Origin: a virus
Taxonomy: Duplodnaviria > Heunggongvirae > Uroviricota > Caudoviricetes
DNA length: 40,150 nt
Direction: 5' to 3' (one strand)
IMG/VR virus record: IMGVR_UViG_2718218304_000002
Shown: positions 1,826 through 27,954 of the stretch, in pieces
Layout of the letters: every line of letters starts with the position of its first letter
How positions within the stretch are numbered: position 1 is the stretch's first letter
The notes under the pieces: generated by a model
What the model saw: only the letters and a program-made list of their open reading frames with translations
The model's database searches: none
What the model was told of the DNA's origin: nothing
Program-made: the position numbers and the translations under genes

Positions 1826-3801
<1,976 letters not shown>

Positions 3802-7705: not shown

Positions 7706-7742
7706 GTAAGCGTGCAGCAAGAACCGTATTGACGGGGATGTG

Positions 7743-9280
7743 TTATTCAGTCGGCAGTGCTACGCGCCAGGGGAGCAGTTCGCCGACCCGGTTTATCGGC
7801 CAGTCGGCTATGACGTCAAGGACATAGCGGAGGTAGCTTTCTGGCTCCACTCCGTTCAGTTTGCACGTCCCGATCAGGCTGTACAGCAGCGCTCCCCGCT
7901 CTCCTCCATGATCCGAACCGAAGAACAGGTAGTTTTTGCGGCCCAGACTGACCATCCGCAACGCATTTTCAGCGATGTTATTGTCCGCCTCAGCCCAGCC
8001 ATCATCTGCATAGTACGTCAGCGCCGGCCACTGGTTCAGGGCGTATGCGAACGCTTTCGCCAGTTCTGAGTGTCGCGACAGGGTTTTCATCTTTTCACGC
8101 AGCCAGCTTTCCAGGGATTTCAGCAGCGGTTTCGTTTTCAACTGACGTTCGGCAAGGCGCTGCTCCGCCGTCATTCCCCTTATCTCTGCCTCGATGGCGT
8201 ACAGTTCGCCGATCCGTTTCAGCGCTTCCTCCGTCAGGGCTGACGGGGTGCGAACGTGCACATCGTGGATTTTACGGCGGGCGTGAGCCCAACAGGCGGC
8301 TTCCGTTATCCGGCCATCCCGGTACAGCTCGTTGAACCCGGCGTATGCATCCGCCTGCAGTAACCACTGAACCCCGCAAGATGGGTCTGCGGATGGATGC
8401 CTTTTCTGTCCGGGCTGTAAGCGAACCACACCGCCGGCGCCAGCGTTGACCCGGCGTTACGGTCGTCACGAACGTAGGTCCATAACCGCCCGGTCTTCGT
8501 TTTCTTATTGCCTGGCAACAGCACCGGGACAGGCGTGTCATCAGCATGGAGCTTACCGTCAGTCAGCACATAGTCCTGAAGCGCTTCTTCCAGCGGTGAC
8601 AGTAGCCGGCAGCATGCATCCACCCAGCCCGACAGCAGTGAACGACTCAGCTCCACGCCCTGGCGGCCGTACATTTCAGACTGGCGGTACAGCGGGGTGT
8701 GCTCTGCATACTTTGAGATCAGCACGCGGGCCAGCAGCCCCGGTCCTGCGATACCCCGCTCGATGGGCCGTGAAGGCGCGGGGGCCTGCACGATGGCATC
8801 GCACTGAGTACAGGCATGCTTTTCACGTACAGTCCGGATAACCCGGAAGGCGCTGCGCATCAGCTCCAGCTGTTCGGCGGCATCCTCACCCAGATAGCTC
8901 AGCGAGCCTCCACATTCCGGGCAGCATGACGCTGCCGGCAGCAGCCGTTTTTCATCGCGGGGGAGTGATTCGGGGAACGGTTTGCGGGTGCGGGTTTGAC
9001 GCAGCGGGCGCTGCACGGCCGGGTCGTCAACCCGACCGGTAAGGGTATCACTTTCTTTCTGAAGTGCCTTCAGGTCAGCTTCCATCTGTGCGATACGACG
9101 GGAGACTTTTTCCGAGCGGCTGCCGAAGTTCATCCGGCGCAGCTTATCCAGCTGTGCCTGCAGATGGTCTATTTCGCGTTCACGCTCGTTCAGCTTTTCC
9201 TGCAGGGCACGGTTCAGCGCCTCCTGTTCGGCAAGGAGACGTTTCAGTGCATTGATATCGTCAGGAAGTGAGCTGCTCAT
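7743..9280 (-). pseudogene. IS66 transposase TnpC, split by a frameshift
   Basis: N-terminal ORF 8306..9280 and C-terminal ORF 7743..8429 overlap in different frames; frames switch near 8360 (...GFSGY / LQADAYAGF...). One added base would restore a single ~510-aa ORF. Confidence 0.8.
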
Positions 9281-9328
9281 ACCGGGTATATTACCAGGCT
9301 CATTCAGCGTCGACCAGGATAAAGAGGC

Positions 9329-9676
9329 TTACAACATAGTCAGGGACGTAAGCAGTCTTTTAGGCTGCCGCCAGTCGATACCTTCCAGCAGCATCGCCAG
9401 CTGTGCCGGTGTGAGGAACACTTTGCCATCCCGGGCTGACGGCCAGGCGAAGCGGCCGCGCTCCAGCCGTTTGGTCAGCAGACACAGTCCATCGCCGGTA
9501 GACCAGAGGAGCTTTACCTGACTGCCATTACGCCCACGGAAGATAAAAACGTGACCTGACATCGGATCGTCTTTCAGCGTCGTCTGCACCTTTGCCGCCA
9601 GGCCGTTGAAGCCGTTTCTCATATCGGTGATGCCAGCGACCAGCCAGATCTTTGTCCCTGATGGTAATGGGATCAA
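9329..9676 (-). CDS. IS66 accessory protein TnpB (Orf2)
   Basis: 115-aa ORF recognised as IS66 Orf2-like; overlaps tnpA stop (ATGA). Confidence 0.8.
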   Translation of the reverse strand: MIPLPSGTKIWLVAGITDMRNGFNGLAAKVQTTLKDDPMSGHVFIFRGRNGSQVKLLWSTGDGLCLLTKRLERGRFAWPSARDGKVFLTPAQLAMLLEGIDWRQPKRLLTSLTML

Positions 9677-10077
9677 CGTTTGAGCTCCCGTATCAGCAGG
9701 TTCAGGATATTTTCGCTGATGGCACCATTCAGACGGAGTGATCCGTGCCGGAACGTCACTTCACAGCTGATATTGAGTGATTCAGGTGTCGCAGCAGCTA
9801 CAGGTTGTGACCGGGGGGAGGTTGTAGGGACAACATCTTCGGCATCAAGTGTTATCGGGAGCAGCTCAGGCACGTTGTTTTCTGTTGTTGAAGGAGGACG
9901 TAGTTTTCCTTCGCGCCAGTACTGGCGCCACTTGAACAGCAAATTATCGTTGATCCCATGCTCACGAGCGAGTTGCGCTACGGAGATCTCTGGTCGATGC
10001 GAGAGTTCAACCATTTTGATTTTGAACTCAACGGGATAATTAGGGCTTTTTTTACGCACTGCGGTTAATGATTTCAT
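9673..10077 (-). CDS. IS66 accessory protein TnpA (Orf1)
   Basis: 134-aa ORF with N-terminal HTH region, first gene of the IS66 operon. Confidence 0.75.
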   Translation of the reverse strand: MKSLTAVRKKSPNYPVEFKIKMVELSHRPEISVAQLAREHGINDNLLFKWRQYWREGKLRPPSTTENNVPELLPITLDAEDVVPTTSPRSQPVAAATPESLNISCEVTFRHGSLRLNGAISENILNLLIRELKR

Positions 10078-11261
10078 GGATTGCGTCCACCATATTTGGT
10101 GTCCACTATTCTCTCAGGGAATTTCAGGATCTGCCAGACGGTGCTGAGACGACGCTTACCCATTGTATAAAGCGGCGAGTTTTCCTGCATTCGCTCTTCA
10201 TTAGTCTGATCAACAGATTTGGTGGATGTATTTTCAGCACGCAGAAGTTTAGCGCCGGCATGACGCATCTGATTTTCCAGCTTCTCAAGTGATGTTTCGC
10301 CAGATTCTATCGCTGCGCCACTATGTTCAACATATTCGAGGCCATTTTTTGTTCTGTCCTCAAAAATCGTAGCGGTGGATGCACCAACCGTCAGTTCTTC
10401 ATTCCTGTCCAGCCCGTAGGCCACCAGCAATGGAACGCGGGCAACATGAAGAATATTGTCCTGCTCGCTCTGGCTTTGCCAGTGCTTGATATTCAGCAAG
10501 CCAAGATTAAGCAATGGCGGTGTACCACGCATAAATCCTGTTTTCTTCGTGTACAGTGTTACCAGAGGAATATCATCACGGCTGGTATTCCATGACTCAT
10601 GAAGCGTCCAGACAGATTCGCCATTAGTGCCTTCGCTACGTCGATAAATTTCAACTCGACGGGGCATAATATGGCGGATCTGCTCCACCTTCTTCTGCCC
10701 GAAATCATCACCATCAATAATGATGACCTCTTTTATACGCAAATCAGTGAGAACAACTTTCCCTTTTTCAACTTTCGATTTCCATCCAATAACCTGGCGT
10801 GGATTCAGCATCGTAACGTACGGACGACCACCGGTCGCGTTTTCATCGGCTTTTGTCCGAATCTCTTTCATATCCGTTCGTGGATAGTCCACCAGCGCAT
10901 GTGCCACACCATACTGAAATGCGAGGCTGAAAAATTGCTGCGCCCACACATCCAGTCGGCTCCCCTCCATGTCGATATTTTCTGCATATTCCCTGATTTT
11001 TGCCGGCGTTTCCTCACTCAATACTGTCGGCTCTGCAAATATGCGCCCAATATTTTGCTTGATGCTTTCTTCATACACAGGAAGTAGCGTAGCCACAGAC
11101 AGGCGTTTTTTATAAGCGTCTTCATCTTCGTTAGGCCATTTTGGGAGATAATTTTCCCCCTGCCTGCGCATTTCAAGCGTACCGCCCATCAGTGCGTCGT
11201 TAATATCCCACGCCTCCAGCATATCGTTATAGTCGAGGTTGGGTGTTGATATATCAGCCAT
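10074..11261 (-). pseudogene. Putative phage portal protein, C-terminus truncated by IS66
   Basis: ORF lies directly downstream of terminase large subunit; native sequence ends at 10160 and the last ~28 codons are IS66 terminal sequence. Portal call rests on gene order and size, not a recognised motif. Confidence 0.45.
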
Positions 11262-22152: not shown

Positions 22153-22593
22153 TTCTCAATCTCTCGATGGCGCAGTGCAGCAGATGCCAGCTGTTCAGGC
22201 TGACGTATAAAGTATAAATAAACTGGTTCCAGTGTAAAGCCCCCACCTTAATGGAATAAAAACCAAACAACAGATTGCTGGGATACAAACAACGCTTATT
22301 ATTAAAAGCGGTTAAACAAATTAAATTTTAATGTTATGCAAATTTGTCAGATCACCATAATATCTCATTTGAAAACCGCTGAAATAACAGCCCTATCAGG
22401 GTTAATCATATTAAGGTGAGTAAATATGGAAAACAACAAATCTGTACATTACGTTCCTTTTTTATCTGTAATACTTTTTGTTTTATGCTGTGCGTGGGCA
22501 TTATTTTTATAAAAATATTTACAGATGAAGTAAACCCGCCAATCAGGTTAACTGTGGCTGCGTTGAGGATGCATAATACATCAGAGGTTGCGG

Positions 22594-22603
22594 GGATTTC
22601 TCC
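22594..22603. repeat. IS186 target-site duplication, left copy (GGATTTCTCC)
   Basis: Identical 10-mer flanks both IS186 ends (22594-22603 and 23943-23952). Confidence 0.85.
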
Positions 22604-23942
22604 CATAAGCGCTAACTTAAGGGTTGTGGTATTACGCCTGATATGATTTAACGTGCCGATGAATTACTCTCACGATAACTGGTCAGCAATTCTGGCCCAT
22701 ATTGGTAAGCCCGAAGAACTGGATACTTCGGCACGTAATGCCGGGGCTCTAACCCGCCGCCGCGAAATTCGTGATGCTGCAACTCTGCTACGTCTGGGGC
22801 TGGCTTACGGCCCCGGGGGGATGTCATTACGTGAAGTCACTGCATGGGCTCAGCTCCATGACGTTGCAACATTATCTGACGTGGCTCTCCTGAAGCGGCT
22901 GCGGAATGCCGCCGACTGGTTTGGCATACTTGCCGCACAAACACTTGCTGTACGCGCCGCAGTTACGGGTTGTACAAGCGGAAAGAGATTGCGTCTTGTC
23001 GATGGAACAGCAATCAGTGCGCCCGGGGGCGGCAGCGCTGAATGGCGACTACATATGGGATATGATCCTCATACCTGTCAGTTCACTGATTTTGAGCTAA
23101 CCGACAGCAGAGACGCTGAACGGCTGGACCGATTTGCGCAAACGGCAGACGAGATACGCATTGCTGACCGGGGATTCGGTTCGCGTCCCGAATGTATCCG
23201 CTCACTTGCTTTTGGAGAAGCTGATTATATCGTCCGGGTTCACTGGCGAGGATTGCGCTGGTTAACTGCAGAAGGAATGCGCTTTGACATGATGGGTTTT
23301 CTGCGCGGGCTGGATTGCGGTAAGAACGGTGAAACCACTGTAATGATAGGCAATTCAGGTAATAAAAAAGCCGGAGCTCCCTTTCCGGCACGTCTCATTG
23401 CCGTATCACTTCCTCCCGAAAAAGCATTAATCAGTAAAACCCGACTGCTCAGCGAGAATCGTCGAAAAGGACGAGTAGTTCAGGCGGAAACGCTGGAAGC
23501 AGCGGGCCATGTGCTATTGCTAACATCATTACCGGAAGATGAATATTCAGCAGAGCAAGTGGCTGATTGTTACCGTCTGCGATGGCAAATTGAACTGGCT
23601 TTTAAGCGGCTCAAAAGTTTGCTGCACCTGGATGCTTTGCGTGCAAAGGAACCTGAACTCGCGAAAGCGTGGATATTTGCTAATCTACTCGCCGCATTTT
23701 TAATTGACGACATAATCCAGCCATCGCTGGATTTCCCCCCCAGAAGTGCCGGATCCGAAAAGAAGAACTAACTCGTTGTGGAGAATAACAAAAATGGTCA
23801 TCTGGAGCTTACAGGTGGCCATTCGTGGGACAGTATCCCTGACAGCCTACAAAACGCAATTGAAGAACGCGAGGCATCGTCTTAACGAGGCACCGAGGCG
23901 TCGCATTCTTCAGATGGTTCAACCCTTAAGTTAGCGCTTATG
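22604..23942 (+). mobile_element. IS186 (IS4 family), intact, 1,339 bp
   Basis: Terminal inverted repeats CATAAGCGCTAACTTAAGGGTTG at 22604 and its reverse complement ending 23942; single transposase ORF; flanked by a 10-bp direct repeat. Confidence 0.9.
22659..23771 (+). CDS. insL: IS186 transposase
   Basis: 370 aa from MNYSHDNWSAILAHIG..., matching recalled IS186 InsL; IS4-family signature ...YRLRWQIELAFKRLK. Confidence 0.9.
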   Translation: MNYSHDNWSAILAHIGKPEELDTSARNAGALTRRREIRDAATLLRLGLAYGPGGMSLREVTAWAQLHDVATLSDVALLKRLRNAADWFGILAAQTLAVRAAVTGCTSGKRLRLVDGTAISAPGGGSAEWRLHMGYDPHTCQFTDFELTDSRDAERLDRFAQTADEIRIADRGFGSRPECIRSLAFGEADYIVRVHWRGLRWLTAEGMRFDMMGFLRGLDCGKNGETTVMIGNSGNKKAGAPFPARLIAVSLPPEKALISKTRLLSENRRKGRVVQAETLEAAGHVLLLTSLPEDEYSAEQVADCYRLRWQIELAFKRLKSLLHLDALRAKEPELAKAWIFANLLAAFLIDDIIQPSLDFPPRSAGSEKKN

Positions 23943-23952
23943 GGATTTCTCC
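23943..23952. repeat. IS186 target-site duplication, right copy (GGATTTCTCC)
   Basis: See left copy. Removing the IS and one repeat copy reconstructs GCGGGGATTTCTCCCCGC, a GC-rich hairpin. Confidence 0.85.
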
Positions 23953-23964
23953 CCGCTGGTCCTC

Positions 23965-24120
23965 TTACTCCCCAAGTTCGTAAGCTGTGAAGACAGCGAC
24001 CTCCGTCTGGTCGGTTCGGATTCGTACCTCGCAGAGGTCTTTCCTCGTTACCAGTACCGTCACTATAACGGTTAAACAGATGACGATCAGGGTGATTAAC
24101 ATCGCCTTTTGCTGCTTCAT
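23965..24120 (-). CDS. hok: Hok/Gef-family type I toxin (51 aa), with in-frame upstream mok-like extension to 24177
   Basis: MKQQKAMLITLIVICLTVIVTVLVTRKDLCEVRIRTDQTEVAVFTAYELGE matches recalled HokD/RelF-type toxins; ORF 23965..24177 adds 19 upstream codons; the leader upstream (- strand) has a hok-type 5' hairpin (GAGGCTATCTGCC...GGCAGATAG). Confidence 0.8.
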   Translation of the reverse strand: MKQQKAMLITLIVICLTVIVTVLVTRKDLCEVRIRTDQTEVAVFTAYELGE

Positions 24121-24168
24121 AGCCCGCTTCTTCTTGCCTTTCAGCACGTAAGAGACTAACCTACGTTT

Positions 24169-24235
24169 GTAAGGCATAGATTGGGCCCCAGATTAATGTT
24201 AAGCCTCTTGCCGGATGCGTAATATCAACTGGGAC
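24169..24235 (+). ncRNA. Putative Sok-like antisense RNA (approximate ends)
   Basis: On + strand, opposite the mok start: -35 TTGCCT (24134-24139), 17-bp spacer, -10 TAACCT (24157-24162) give a start near 24169. The 3' end is not defined. Confidence 0.3.
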
Positions 24236-24694
24236 TTTTTCTATCTGCCTTTGGTTTTCATGCCCAAGGCAGATAGCCTCAAGCCCCCGCAGCCATACTA
24301 TTTAACCCCCTTTACTTCGCCAATATGAAATCAATCAGAAAGGCGATCCATAAGAACAATAGCAAGACAATAAATTGCCACCACAGCCGCAATAGCCAAC
24401 GCACACTTGAGAACCAGCACGACAACCTCCTGTATTGGACGTGCACCTGCCCTGATAAATATGAGGCTGTCTCGTCAGTGATTCAATACAACTATTGGGT
24501 ATAGTTTCTGTGATTTTGTTCTGTAGAAATGGAATACAACAACCAGTCACTACCAGCACTTCTTTAAATACGCCAAGTCCGACGGAAGCCAACATCTAGT
24601 CTGCTTTGAACGAGGAGCTAACTTTGGTGTATATAGAAACATAATCACTACAGGTAGTTCCGAAAAAATTTCTCTATCGTGATACTTGCTGGTT

Positions 24695-25744
24695 TTATTT
24701 TAATCTCTGTAATTTTTTACGCAGAGCATTAACTCGTCTCTGAACCCCTATTTTTGGATTAAAGCTCAAAGCTTTTTCATAGGCATCAAGAGCATCACTA
24801 AAGTTACCAAGTAAATCATTTGCTTCACCTTTGATGCGAAATGCGGCTGCAGCCCAGTCAGTTCGGTCTTTCGCTCCTTCATTAAGAGCCATTTCAATTG
24901 CTTTCAATGCTTTTTGAGCATTCTTCTCACTGGGATGTTCTCTTAAAAGCGCTCTCGCGGCCTCTACTTTAAGGTTGAAATTTCCTTTATATAGACAAGC
25001 ATCTTTATACGCTTCCACGTCAATGGGAATACCGATGGCAGTGTATCTGAAGTATCCAATATTTTTGCATTTCACTTTCAGCGATCTTAGCCCCCCATTT
25101 TCATCGAGATCGAAGAAATAACTATCAGCCCATCCATACTCAGGTTTAATGGAAAATATTGTTGTTTTTGACCACAGATTTATTACCTCAAGGATATTTC
25201 CATCTTTACCGGGCGCTGCGGCTGTCTGAACCGATGCGTATTTACCACAATGAGAAATTCCGATATTATAGATATTTGCTTCATAATGACGTCTAAACTT
25301 TTCATTTCCTTCAACATCAATAGCAATCAAATCAGCTTGCAGCGCAGAACCAAATCCAGCGTCATGAACAATATAATCACCTGTGTCAGCGACAGCAGCA
25401 TTAAATGGTCGGGCAATAGTTCTGAGCTTATGAAGGATACGAAAAGTTGGTTTATTAACTAAAACAACTGTTCCAAATCCACTTTCCCGGTGCCCTCCCC
25501 TTCCATTGCCATCAAAGTCACTACAGCCTACAACCCAATGTTTGTTTGCAGACAGATACGCCTGTCCAAAAAAATAAGGAGAATCAATAGTAAGCCAATC
25601 GTTTTCGATTGATATATTTCCGTTTTGTTTCTTGAGTTTAGGAGTTATGTTAGCTGTTAACTCATGCAAACTTGAAGGCGTCATTGTTTTTGCAGAAGTT
25701 ATCCTGGAGGTAAGCAAATTGAATAGTTGTGAAATAAATCCCAT
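24695..25744 (-). CDS. Hypothetical protein with C-terminal TPR-like repeats (349 aa)
   Basis: AT-rich ORF; AGGAG 9 nt upstream of ATG; C-terminal ~100 aa form TPR-like helical repeats; N-terminal ~250 aa unrecognised. Confidence 0.5.
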   Translation of the reverse strand: MGFISQLFNLLTSRITSAKTMTPSSLHELTANITPKLKKQNGNISIENDWLTIDSPYFFGQAYLSANKHWVVGCSDFDGNGRGGHRESGFGTVVLVNKPTFRILHKLRTIARPFNAAVADTGDYIVHDAGFGSALQADLIAIDVEGNEKFRRHYEANIYNIGISHCGKYASVQTAAAPGKDGNILEVINLWSKTTIFSIKPEYGWADSYFFDLDENGGLRSLKVKCKNIGYFRYTAIGIPIDVEAYKDACLYKGNFNLKVEAARALLREHPSEKNAQKALKAIEMALNEGAKDRTDWAAAAFRIKGEANDLLGNFSDALDAYEKALSFNPKIGVQRRVNALRKKLQRLK

Positions 25745-26271: not shown

Positions 26272-27954
26272 TTAACCAATTTTCCATACATTTACTGCTT
26301 GTTCCGACATCCATTTTTGAAAATCATTGACAGCCTCTAAATTCCATTCAGGATACTGTGTAATCTTAGCCGCTAATTTATACTTTGATTTTCCATATTC
26401 ATTTTTCTTCACTTCAAATGAAGCTCTTTTTAGATTATCTTTATCCATCAAAACCATATTTCCTAACCTATCCTTTACGTCATTAACCCCCTCCCCAAAC
26501 GAATTGCACCACCCCTTCTCTGGGTTAAATGGACAAATATGTTCGAGTGTAACTTTTTCATGATCGCAATTATTACCAAGATATTGTTCAATTTCAGCCA
26601 AGAGAAATCTAATTTTTTTGGCTGTTTGTCTACTTGGCATTCGATGAAATTCAAAAGCATTAAAGAACACGTTATCATCAGGATATAACCTCTTAAACTC
26701 CTCCCCATTTTTCACATTGCTAGCTCTCTTGTATTCCTTATTGGAGATCTTAATCGCAATTTGATTATACATGCTTTCTTGTTCACTTGGTGATAAATGA
26801 CAAATAACATTGTATCTAATTGATAAAATATATAAATAACGAGTCAGGCTGACGAACTCATCTGGATTGAATTGATTAAAAGCTGATAGCAATACTGTTA
26901 ATGGCTGTCTAATATTAAAGAGTCTAATGCCGTTCAGATAATGAATGGCCTTCTTGTATTTAGTATCTTGCTCTGCCCACCATGAATCATTCGGGTTAAT
27001 CAATGATGCATAAATAGGTGCGGAATTTATCAGTGATCTTAAATAATCGTATGCTTCTTTAGGGGTTGTAATTACTTTTCTCATTGAAGTGTATAAATTA
27101 TTTTTTGTGACCATTTTTCTATGAGAATTATGATGATACCTAATGTAATCAGAAACATTGCTTTCTCCCAACTGATCGATAATCTCCGACCATTGCTCAT
27201 CTAACTCATCTAATTCCTCATCTCCGATTTTCTCATCCTTAGTTACTATCGAAAACAAATAGTTTTTTAAGAGATCTGGCGTGGATAACTGGACTCCTCT
27301 CGCATTTAAAGTTTCAAATACTTTGTATGCATTTAAATCATCTTGAACAACTATTTTTGTAAAAACCATACTCGAAGAAAAATCGGCAATAAACTGTGCG
27401 ATCTCAGCGCCGGTATTACCGAACTCCTTCTTTTGGAAAAAATCAAAGCATTTCTTGAGTAGCTTATTTGTAGATGTAGTTCCACGAGTATTAGGAGCTT
27501 CTAAGTTTGAACAGATGCTTTGAAAATATCTTTTATTATTTCTATTTAAATCTAGCTTGCTAACCACCTTTAATGAAACGAAGTTTTTGTTACCCACAAA
27601 TGTCTTTGTTATTGCATCAAGTCGCTCTGTGTTTTGTTCAACCTCCTCTCCTTTATCTATCAAGTTTTTAATGGCTTTCATGGCTGCTAGAACTATAATC
27701 GACAAGGTTACTAATCGTTGTTGACCGTCAATGACCTCATGTTGATACTGTTCTTTTTGTTGAAGAACTATATATCCCATATAATGAAAACCTTCATCAT
27801 CAAGTGCTGTAACATCACTCCAAAGGTCCTCCCATTGTTCTACATCCCAAGCATAGTCTCGCTGGAATCTAGGAACAATGTACTTATTTGACCCTCCAAT
27901 TAATTCATTGAAGTTCTCATTTTTTGGTTCCATTAACATAAACTGTTTGGCCAT
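26272..27954 (-). CDS. GmrSD-family type IV restriction endonuclease-like protein (DUF262 + DUF1524/His-Me finger)
   Basis: 560 aa; N-terminal DUF262 motifs (YIVPRFQRDYAWD, VIDGQQRL) and C-terminal His-Me motif (TLEHICPFNPEKGW...N...N); very AT-rich coding sequence. Confidence 0.75.
   Translation of the reverse strand: MAKQFMLMEPKNENFNELIGGSNKYIVPRFQRDYAWDVEQWEDLWSDVTALDDEGFHYMGYIVLQQKEQYQHEVIDGQQRLVTLSIIVLAAMKAIKNLIDKGEEVEQNTERLDAITKTFVGNKNFVSLKVVSKLDLNRNNKRYFQSICSNLEAPNTRGTTSTNKLLKKCFDFFQKKEFGNTGAEIAQFIADFSSSMVFTKIVVQDDLNAYKVFETLNARGVQLSTPDLLKNYLFSIVTKDEKIGDEELDELDEQWSEIIDQLGESNVSDYIRYHHNSHRKMVTKNNLYTSMRKVITTPKEAYDYLRSLINSAPIYASLINPNDSWWAEQDTKYKKAIHYLNGIRLFNIRQPLTVLLSAFNQFNPDEFVSLTRYLYILSIRYNVICHLSPSEQESMYNQIAIKISNKEYKRASNVKNGEEFKRLYPDDNVFFNAFEFHRMPSRQTAKKIRFLLAEIEQYLGNNCDHEKVTLEHICPFNPEKGWCNSFGEGVNDVKDRLGNMVLMDKDNLKRASFEVKKNEYGKSKYKLAAKITQYPEWNLEAVNDFQKWMSEQAVNVWKIG

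Follow-up and report, generated by a model that had tools for sequence, protein, structure and literature searches.

IS186 in the GC-rich hairpin past a prophage hok gene, a recurrent target of the element across the hok family

Insertion sequences (ISs) beside the hok toxin genes of Escherichia coli K-12 have been documented since Pedersen and Gerdes 1999, as cited in PMC4147584 and PMC3562002. Two of them are copies of IS186: IS186A lies past hokC (gef), in the hairpin GCGGGG-ATCACT-CCCCGC, and IS186B lies past hokE, in the hairpin GCGGGG-AGTAAT-CCCCGC, each with its own GG-N6-CC duplication. At gef the element is described as disrupting the fold-back (fbi) box and normal processing (PMC3562002). 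The published IS186 target is GGGG(N6/N7)CCCC, of which K-12 holds only 19+35 sites; mutation-accumulation lines show that the element uses either orientation and that single sites are hit repeatedly (PMC5009759). Here we describe an intact IS186 just past the hok gene of a hok/mok/sok toxin-antitoxin locus in a Rac-type prophage, found in the Caudoviricetes virus record IMGVR_UViG_2718218304_000002. The whole 40,150-nt stretch of that record is called the window below, and positions are counted from its first letter.

Length, inverted repeats, a DDE transposase open reading frame (ORF), identity with the K-12 copies, and target motif all assign the element to IS186 (IS4 family). The terminal inverted repeats, CATAAGCGCTAACTTAAGGGTTG, match at 23 of 23 positions at both ends, and over its 1339 bp the element shows no difference from K-12 IS186A, IS186B, or IS186C. 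Its sole long ORF, the transposase gene, is uninterrupted (Pfam DDE_Tnp_1, PF01609, 1.6e-26; Table 1). The encoded protein is RefSeq WP_001300563.1 in the identical locus of E. coli D4 (NZ_CP010143), where PGAP labels the element an IS4-like IS421 family transposase.

The IS is flanked by a perfect 10-bp direct repeat, GGATTTCTCC, at 22594-22603 and 23943-23952. A repeat finder gives 12 nt, GGGATTTCTCCC, for the same duplication because the IS termini, C...G, extend the 10-bp match. In silico deletion of the element and one repeat copy yields GCGGGGATTTCTCCCCGC, with the site GGGG-ATTTCT-CCCC at its center. This exact sequence occurs, in the same context, in two natural IS-free alleles: E. coli S3 (L001; 99.8% identity over 429 nt) and FDAARGOS_497 (L013; 100% over 120 nt). 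The present 40-kb window contains no GGGG-N6-CCCC match, against a chance expectation of 0.41; the motif split by the IS was therefore the only one there. An earlier reading of the window, made from the sequence alone, had claimed an intact IS186 with intact 23-bp terminal repeats, a perfect 10-bp duplication, and a GGGG-N6-CCCC hairpin that reappears when the element is removed; the features above and the comparison with IS-free alleles bear out each of these points.

These observations establish transposition into the preferred motif by a staggered cut, at a site chosen by transposase preference. In this sequence of events, IS186 entered the GGGG-N6-CCCC palindrome 8 nt past the hok stop in a Rac-type prophage, and a cut staggered across GG-N6-CC gave the 10-bp duplication. 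The chance that an assembly artefact or chimeric join produced the arrangement is practically nil: Both junctions recur in dozens of independently assembled complete genomes, positions 2100-40150 of the window align with E. coli D4 without a mismatch over 38,051 nt, and duplication and inverted repeats are perfect.

The K-12 loci provide the closest comparison. Like hokC with IS186A, the window has the IS in the same orientation relative to hok, a GCGGGG-N6-CCCCGC hairpin 8 nt past the stop, a GG-N6-CC 10-bp duplication, and the fbi box on the far side of the element. Unlike hokC, the window locus is of the hokD/hokW type and lies in a Rac-type prophage, with ATTTCT rather than ATCACT in the loop and clearly different flanks; because paralogue, loop, and flanks all differ, its insertion is independent of the one at hokC. 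The hokE locus with IS186B agrees with the window in hairpin position, motif, and duplication geometry, whereas IS186B is co-directional with its hok gene and hokE is a much more distant paralogue. The window thus fits the hokC/hokE class, in which the IS lies outside the hok frame, between hok and the 3′ regulatory elements, and the sequence-only reading was right to draw an analogy with the IS-disrupted hok loci of K-12.

Two further sets of described loci frame the case. The hokW/sokW locus of Shiga-toxin phage 933W and the Rac-type phage hok genes share the same prophage hok/mok/sok architecture at ~88% nucleotide identity; in contrast to the window, the annotation of the 933W locus shows hok and the 3′ elements uninterrupted by an IS. 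Outside the hok family, the IS186 hot spots at the lon promoter, fimA, menC, and the nupC terminator carry the same motif and are hit in either orientation (PMC5009759; saiSree et al. 2001 as cited). Like the hok site, those hot spots show duplications whose length varies (10-11 bp) and have been hit independently more than once (PMC5009759). In the hok case, by contrast, the element enters a functional RNA structure in the mRNA of a toxin-antitoxin system, one conserved across a gene family, so that the hot spot is multiplied over paralogues, prophages, and plasmids.

To place the hairpin within the hok transcript, we built an alignment from loci with the IS removed in silico where one was present: those of the window and S3, the K-12 paralogues hokC and hokE, two further prophage alleles, one plasmid-borne allele, and hok of the R1 type. 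All share the register of the −10 boxes, of +1, of the tac box at the 5′ end, of the coding frames, and of a GC hairpin that follows the stop codon after 8-9 nt; a further box, ~20 nt past that hairpin and complementary to the 5′ terminus, is in register too. In the window this fbi-like box lies 21 nt beyond the hairpin, on the far side of the IS from hok. Folding controls (R1-type, the prophage allele L008, hokC, and hokE) gave tac/fbi pair probabilities of ~1.0, as in published end-pairing. In the minimum-free-energy fold of the rebuilt, IS-free window transcript, nt 1-11 pair with nt 373-384 at probabilities of 0.75-0.99, with a 2x2 internal loop.

Published mutational data from plasmid R1 bear on the identity of the hairpin. 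In the R1-type sequence, a single GC-rich stem, GGCGGGC-GCAG-GCCCGCC, lies between the stop codon and fbi. Of 22 loss-of-toxicity substitutions in the R1 3′ untranslated region, 19 break a C-G pair of the terminal stem and remove the 3′-processed (Tr) hok mRNA; with G345A and C358A the processed mRNA is absent, which the authors attribute to 3′-5′ exonucleases (PMC9841398, whose numbering is a few nt off from the IncFII R1-type variant aligned here). By position, alignment, and folding, we infer that the window hairpin is the homologue of this terminal stem, more aptly seen as the structure that protects the end of the processed, active mRNA than as a terminator or fold-back element. Homology and folding likewise indicate that the IS lies inside the full-length hok transcript and separates fbi from hok. 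The sequence-only reading had placed the IS in the 3′ region of the hok mRNA, and this part stands; it had set the hairpin where the fold-back and terminator elements sit, and this part is refined, the hairpin being the terminal-stem homologue and not one of those elements itself. It had also named a transcript ending before the IS as the observation that would speak against it, and alignment and folding instead put the fbi box past the element.

The hok locus beside the IS retains its expected parts (Table 1). Its Hok protein matches Pfam HOK_GEF (PF01848, 1.3e-20) and the PHROG family "MokW-like host killing" (1e-29). The hok stop (23965-23967, minus strand) is followed by the hairpin after 8 nt and by the IS end after 22 nt, in agreement with the earlier description of an IS just past a hok-type toxin gene. 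Judged by homology, the sok promoter and Sok RNA are intact. The hok promoter was placed by positional alignment with the −10 boxes of hokC, hokE, L008, the plasmid allele L010, and R1. Starting transcription at GGCTGCG instead would give the fbi region a perfect 7-bp partner; this alternative was rejected because the −35/−10 spacing and the alignment with six other hok loci put +1 at 24288.

Two observations concern the annotation and sequence of the locus. Rfam RF01794, although named "sok antitoxin," hits the leader of the hok mRNA, on the hok-sense strand, and not the Sok-coding strand; its strand calls should not be taken as the orientation of the antitoxin. Weak Rfam hits to CRISPR-DR25 and snoR126 fell below threshold and were dismissed. 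The hok Tyr46 codon lies within GCUUACGAAC (23976-23985, minus strand). This stretch includes UACG, the context in which TadA is reported to edit A to I, changing Tyr to Cys, in the hokB, hokC, hokD, and hokE mRNAs (bioRxiv 10.1101/2025.08.07.668861).

Table 1. Features of the IS186 insertion and the adjoining hok/mok/sok locus, in window coordinates
Feature	Position	Strand	Remarks
fbi-like fold-back box	22556-22568	−	mRNA sense CCUCAACGCAGCC; aligns with fbi of hokC, hokE, L008, L010
Distal half of split hairpin (loop and 3′ arm)	22590-22603	−	mRNA sense GGAGAAAUCCCCGC; holds left copy of duplication
IS186	22604-23942	+	1339 bp; inverted repeats 22604-22626 and 23920-23942
IS186 transposase ORF, InsL-type, DDE	22653-23771	+	Intact; convergent with hok; Pfam PF01609
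Terminator-like hairpin and T-run within IS186	23370-23389	− (hok-sense)	Consensus scan only
Proximal half of split hairpin (5′ arm GCGGGG and loop)	23943-23956	−	Holds right copy of duplication
hok ORF, 51 aa	23965-24120	−	Intact; Pfam HOK_GEF; PHROG 251; 46/51 identical to HokD
mok frame, 70 aa	23965-24177	−	Overlaps hok; from ORF list; aligns with mokW, mokC, R1 mok
hok mRNA leader	24115-24288	−	Rfam RF01794, 92.4 bits, E = 1.5e-20
sok promoter	24134-24162	+	TTGCCT-17-TAACCT; homology to sokW of phage 933W
Sok antisense RNA	24169-24239	+	Homology to annotated sokW (933W) and sokC (K-12)
tac box	24277-24288	−	Predicted +1 at 24288; aligned with R1, hokC, hokE
Predicted hok promoter	24295-24323	−	−35 TTGGCG 24318-24323; 17-nt spacer; −10 TAGTAT 24295-24300

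IS186 insertions recur at hok-family hairpins. The third K-12 copy, IS186C (L015, 2514273-2515617), lies in a hairpin loop of the intrinsic terminator of nupC (CCGGGG-ATAATT-CCCCGG, then a T-run). Taken with the hokC and hokE sites, this means that each of the three IS186 copies of K-12 interrupts an RNA hairpin at the 3′ end of a gene. A hokD-type prophage allele (L008) carries a decayed 1337-bp IS with the duplication GGATTCTCCC, and a second copy of the same allele (L014) carries the IS inverted, with an 11-bp duplication. Another prophage allele (L009) has the duplication GGATTTCTCC, and two plasmids (L010 and L011) have GGATCTCTCC. In E. coli PCP06101 (L012, 1220-2558), the exact site of the window holds an identical IS in inverted orientation with the same 10-bp duplication. 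The hok gene there is a 5′-truncated remnant beside a P-loop ATPase gene, with the 3′ hairpin kept, and the same holds for hok in FDAARGOS_497; since the hairpin of a truncated hok was hit, IS186 targeting does not depend on a working hok.

The IS copies differ from one another by 0-1 nt, whereas the junction windows are only 89-95% identical even though 50-58 nt of each consist of identical IS end. Near-identical elements at diverged junctions indicate that the insertions are independent and later than the divergence of the hok alleles. Descent of all occupied hok loci from one insertion is excluded by the opposite-orientation copies. The sequence preference of the transposase, together with the conservation of this hairpin among hok genes, accounts for its repeated and independent use.

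Counts in complete genomes give the scale of this recurrence. Junction queries were matched with at least 80% coverage in 828 of 5426 complete genomes for the window orientation and in 941 of 5426 for the opposite one, two sets that may overlap; even sampling of the rankings indicates that most of these matches are hokC (mokC) loci, in both orientations. The window's own allele shows the same junction in at least 41 genomes and the inverted junction in at least 8, and the empty site is present at full coverage and at least 97% identity in at least 9. These occupancy counts are lower bounds, as the BLAST summaries mix empty and occupied copies where a genome has several hok loci. We regard the structural and hot-spot claims as near certain. 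The sequence-only reading had spoken of a simple, fairly recent transposition: The clean duplication agrees with a simple event, and "fairly recent" is doubtful because the occupied allele is so widely carried and IS186 copies are near-identical everywhere.

Empty alleles add a complication to the history of the site. Precise excision of IS186 has been seen at lon (PMC3861542), and empty alleles therefore need not all be ancestral. One could go further and picture the G4-N6-C4 stem-loop as a retained landing pad that couples hok and IS186, with recurrent and, through precise excision, reversible disarming of prophage, plasmid, and chromosomal hok loci that spares the toxin gene any mutation. 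We consider such a coupling highly speculative.

For the transcript, folding predicts a change on insertion. The intact hairpin forms 7 bp at −15.2 kcal/mol; the occupied, chimeric junction forms 4 bp plus a bulged extension at −8.8 kcal/mol. A consensus scan of the IS for 3′ ends returned a single terminator-like site, 553 nt inside the element, which is a possible end point of hok read-through transcripts. For gef, the 3′ end figures conflict in the secondary literature ("644 nt" versus "200 bp downstream"). Occupied transcripts were folded with the 3′ end placed 200 or 573 nt inside the element, and in both the 5′ end had the partners that it has in the truncated (open) form. The comparison of folds with and without the IS, a check put forward in the sequence-only reading, thus gave 5′-end partners as in the truncated form and a stem reduced from 7 to 4 bp in the occupied model.

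These folds suggest the following course. With fbi and the native 3′ end moved 1.35 kb off, the 5′ end would no longer be locked in the stable, inert full-length fold, and the stem shielding the processed mRNA from 3′ exonucleases would be weakened. The chimeric hok transcript would end inside IS186 and take the open, Sok-accessible fold at once. Without a long-lived reservoir of toxin mRNA, the capacity for delayed (post-segregational) killing would be lost while the hok, mok, and sok sequences stay intact. By analogy with the R1 mutational data, the stable toxin-mRNA pool is presumably what disappears. Taken whole, motif-driven insertion with loss of that pool is the explanation we think probable; functional inactivation of the hok locus is a reasonable inference, in which our confidence is moderate.

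Several points weigh against this explanation. The GCGC at the IS terminus partly re-pairs with the 5′ arm of the hairpin, and new barriers to exonucleases could be supplied by structures within the element. When the 3′ end was set arbitrarily at 646 nt, folding produced G-U-rich 5′-3′ pairing inside the IS; this pairing was judged fortuitous, being gone with other 3′ ends. The K-12 gef locus, with the same IS in the same orientation at the homologous site, is reported to be still transcribed and antisense-regulated (PMC3562002), and because the hokC IS is identical and in the same orientation, the chimeric 3′ region there would be the same from the junction onward.

The remaining points concern the allele rather than the insertion. 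The window allele reads GGGGGC/GCAGCC at tac/fbi against GGGUGC/GCACCC in six other loci, which places two mismatches in the helix, and the terminator after fbi is degenerate relative to L008, in occupied and empty alleles alike. The allele may thus have been less than fully functional even before the insertion. These features, shared by both allele states, also speak for a reading in which IS186 landed for the motif alone, as a neutral passenger: the hok locus would have been without function, or dispensable, beforehand, and the insertion would have made no difference to the cell. The empty S3 allele has a further tac change and an end-pairing probability of only ~0.5-0.6, the truncated remnant of PCP06101 was hit as well, and the IS-free chromosomal hokA, hokB, and hokC gave no post-segregational killing (bioRxiv 10.1101/2025.08.07.668861, citing Pedersen and Gerdes). 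Against a locus that was dead beforehand stand the intact hok and mok ORFs, sok promoter, and Sok RNA, the 46 of 51 Hok residues identical to toxic HokD, and the rebuilt transcript, which still pairs its ends at high probability. On balance we consider a neutral passenger unlikely.

The open fold also invites the opposite prediction, in which toxin output rises after the insertion. An mRNA lacking fbi might stay constitutively open and translatable, a hair-trigger for toxin synthesis, or transcription of the transposase gene, which is convergent with hok, might alter hok/sok levels; the Tr-like 5′ end of the folded occupied transcripts is in keeping with the former and the gene arrangement with the latter. 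The open form, however, also binds Sok, and the sok gene is intact. In R1 a weaker terminal stem removes the active mRNA (PMC9841398), and the occupied allele is stably carried in the genomes counted above, in both orientations, which argues against toxicity or orientation-specific effects. Upward deregulation therefore seems very improbable to us, and loss of the stable toxin-mRNA pool remains the preferred account of what the insertion does.

The window is an ordinary case of a known pattern and reveals no new mechanism. What it adds is a prophage-borne (Rac-type) hok paralogue to the K-12 cases of IS186 just past hok. In complete genomes, the terminal stem-loop of hok mRNA emerges as a family-wide IS186 hot spot, with independent hits in both orientations on chromosomes, prophages, and plasmids. 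The literature we searched yielded no statement that IS186 targets the terminal stem-loop conserved in processed hok mRNA, nor one of hits across chromosomal, prophage, and plasmid hok loci. For annotators, the case shows that a hok locus need not be functional just because its ORF is intact, a point relevant to counts of active toxin-antitoxin systems. The recurrence also bears on a question raised in PMC5009759, namely whether selection maintains the target sites of IS186.

The surroundings of the locus are those of a Rac-type prophage at ttcA, as annotated in D4, with intR, xisR, ralR, recET, kilR, sieB, racR, ydaSTUV, a lysis cassette, and trkG. The IS is flanked by DUF1367/DUF1364/DUF1133 late-regulatory genes on one side and by the hok locus on the other. 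Two short hydrophobic ORFs lie nearby: one of 29 aa, MLVLKCALAIAAVVAIYCLAIVLMDRLSD (24331-24420, minus strand), just upstream of the hok promoter, and one of 28 aa, MENNKSVHYVPFLSVILFVLCCAWALFL (22426-22512, plus strand), within an AT-rich inverted repeat (22461-22529) past the fbi box. Pfam and PHROG gave no match for either, and RefSeq leaves both unannotated in D4. The D4 annotation also shows ISEc52 fragments and an IS66-like ISEc22 interrupting the tail/baseplate region (window ~2100-3800 and 7740-10080); given this further IS damage, the prophage annotated there is probably defective.

Beyond hok, gene content varies among alleles. A DUF262 protein two genes from hok (26272-27954, minus strand) scores 3.8e-221 against HEC-06, a candidate defence family in PADLOC; no PADLOC match was obtained for the TPR protein encoded between it and hok (24695-25744, minus strand). 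In the other alleles the slot adjoining hok holds a Sll1717-type P-loop ATPase (L012 and L013), SLATT plus SMODS (L014), or an MFS transporter (L002). The slot looks like a hot spot for cargo or defence genes in Rac-type prophages.

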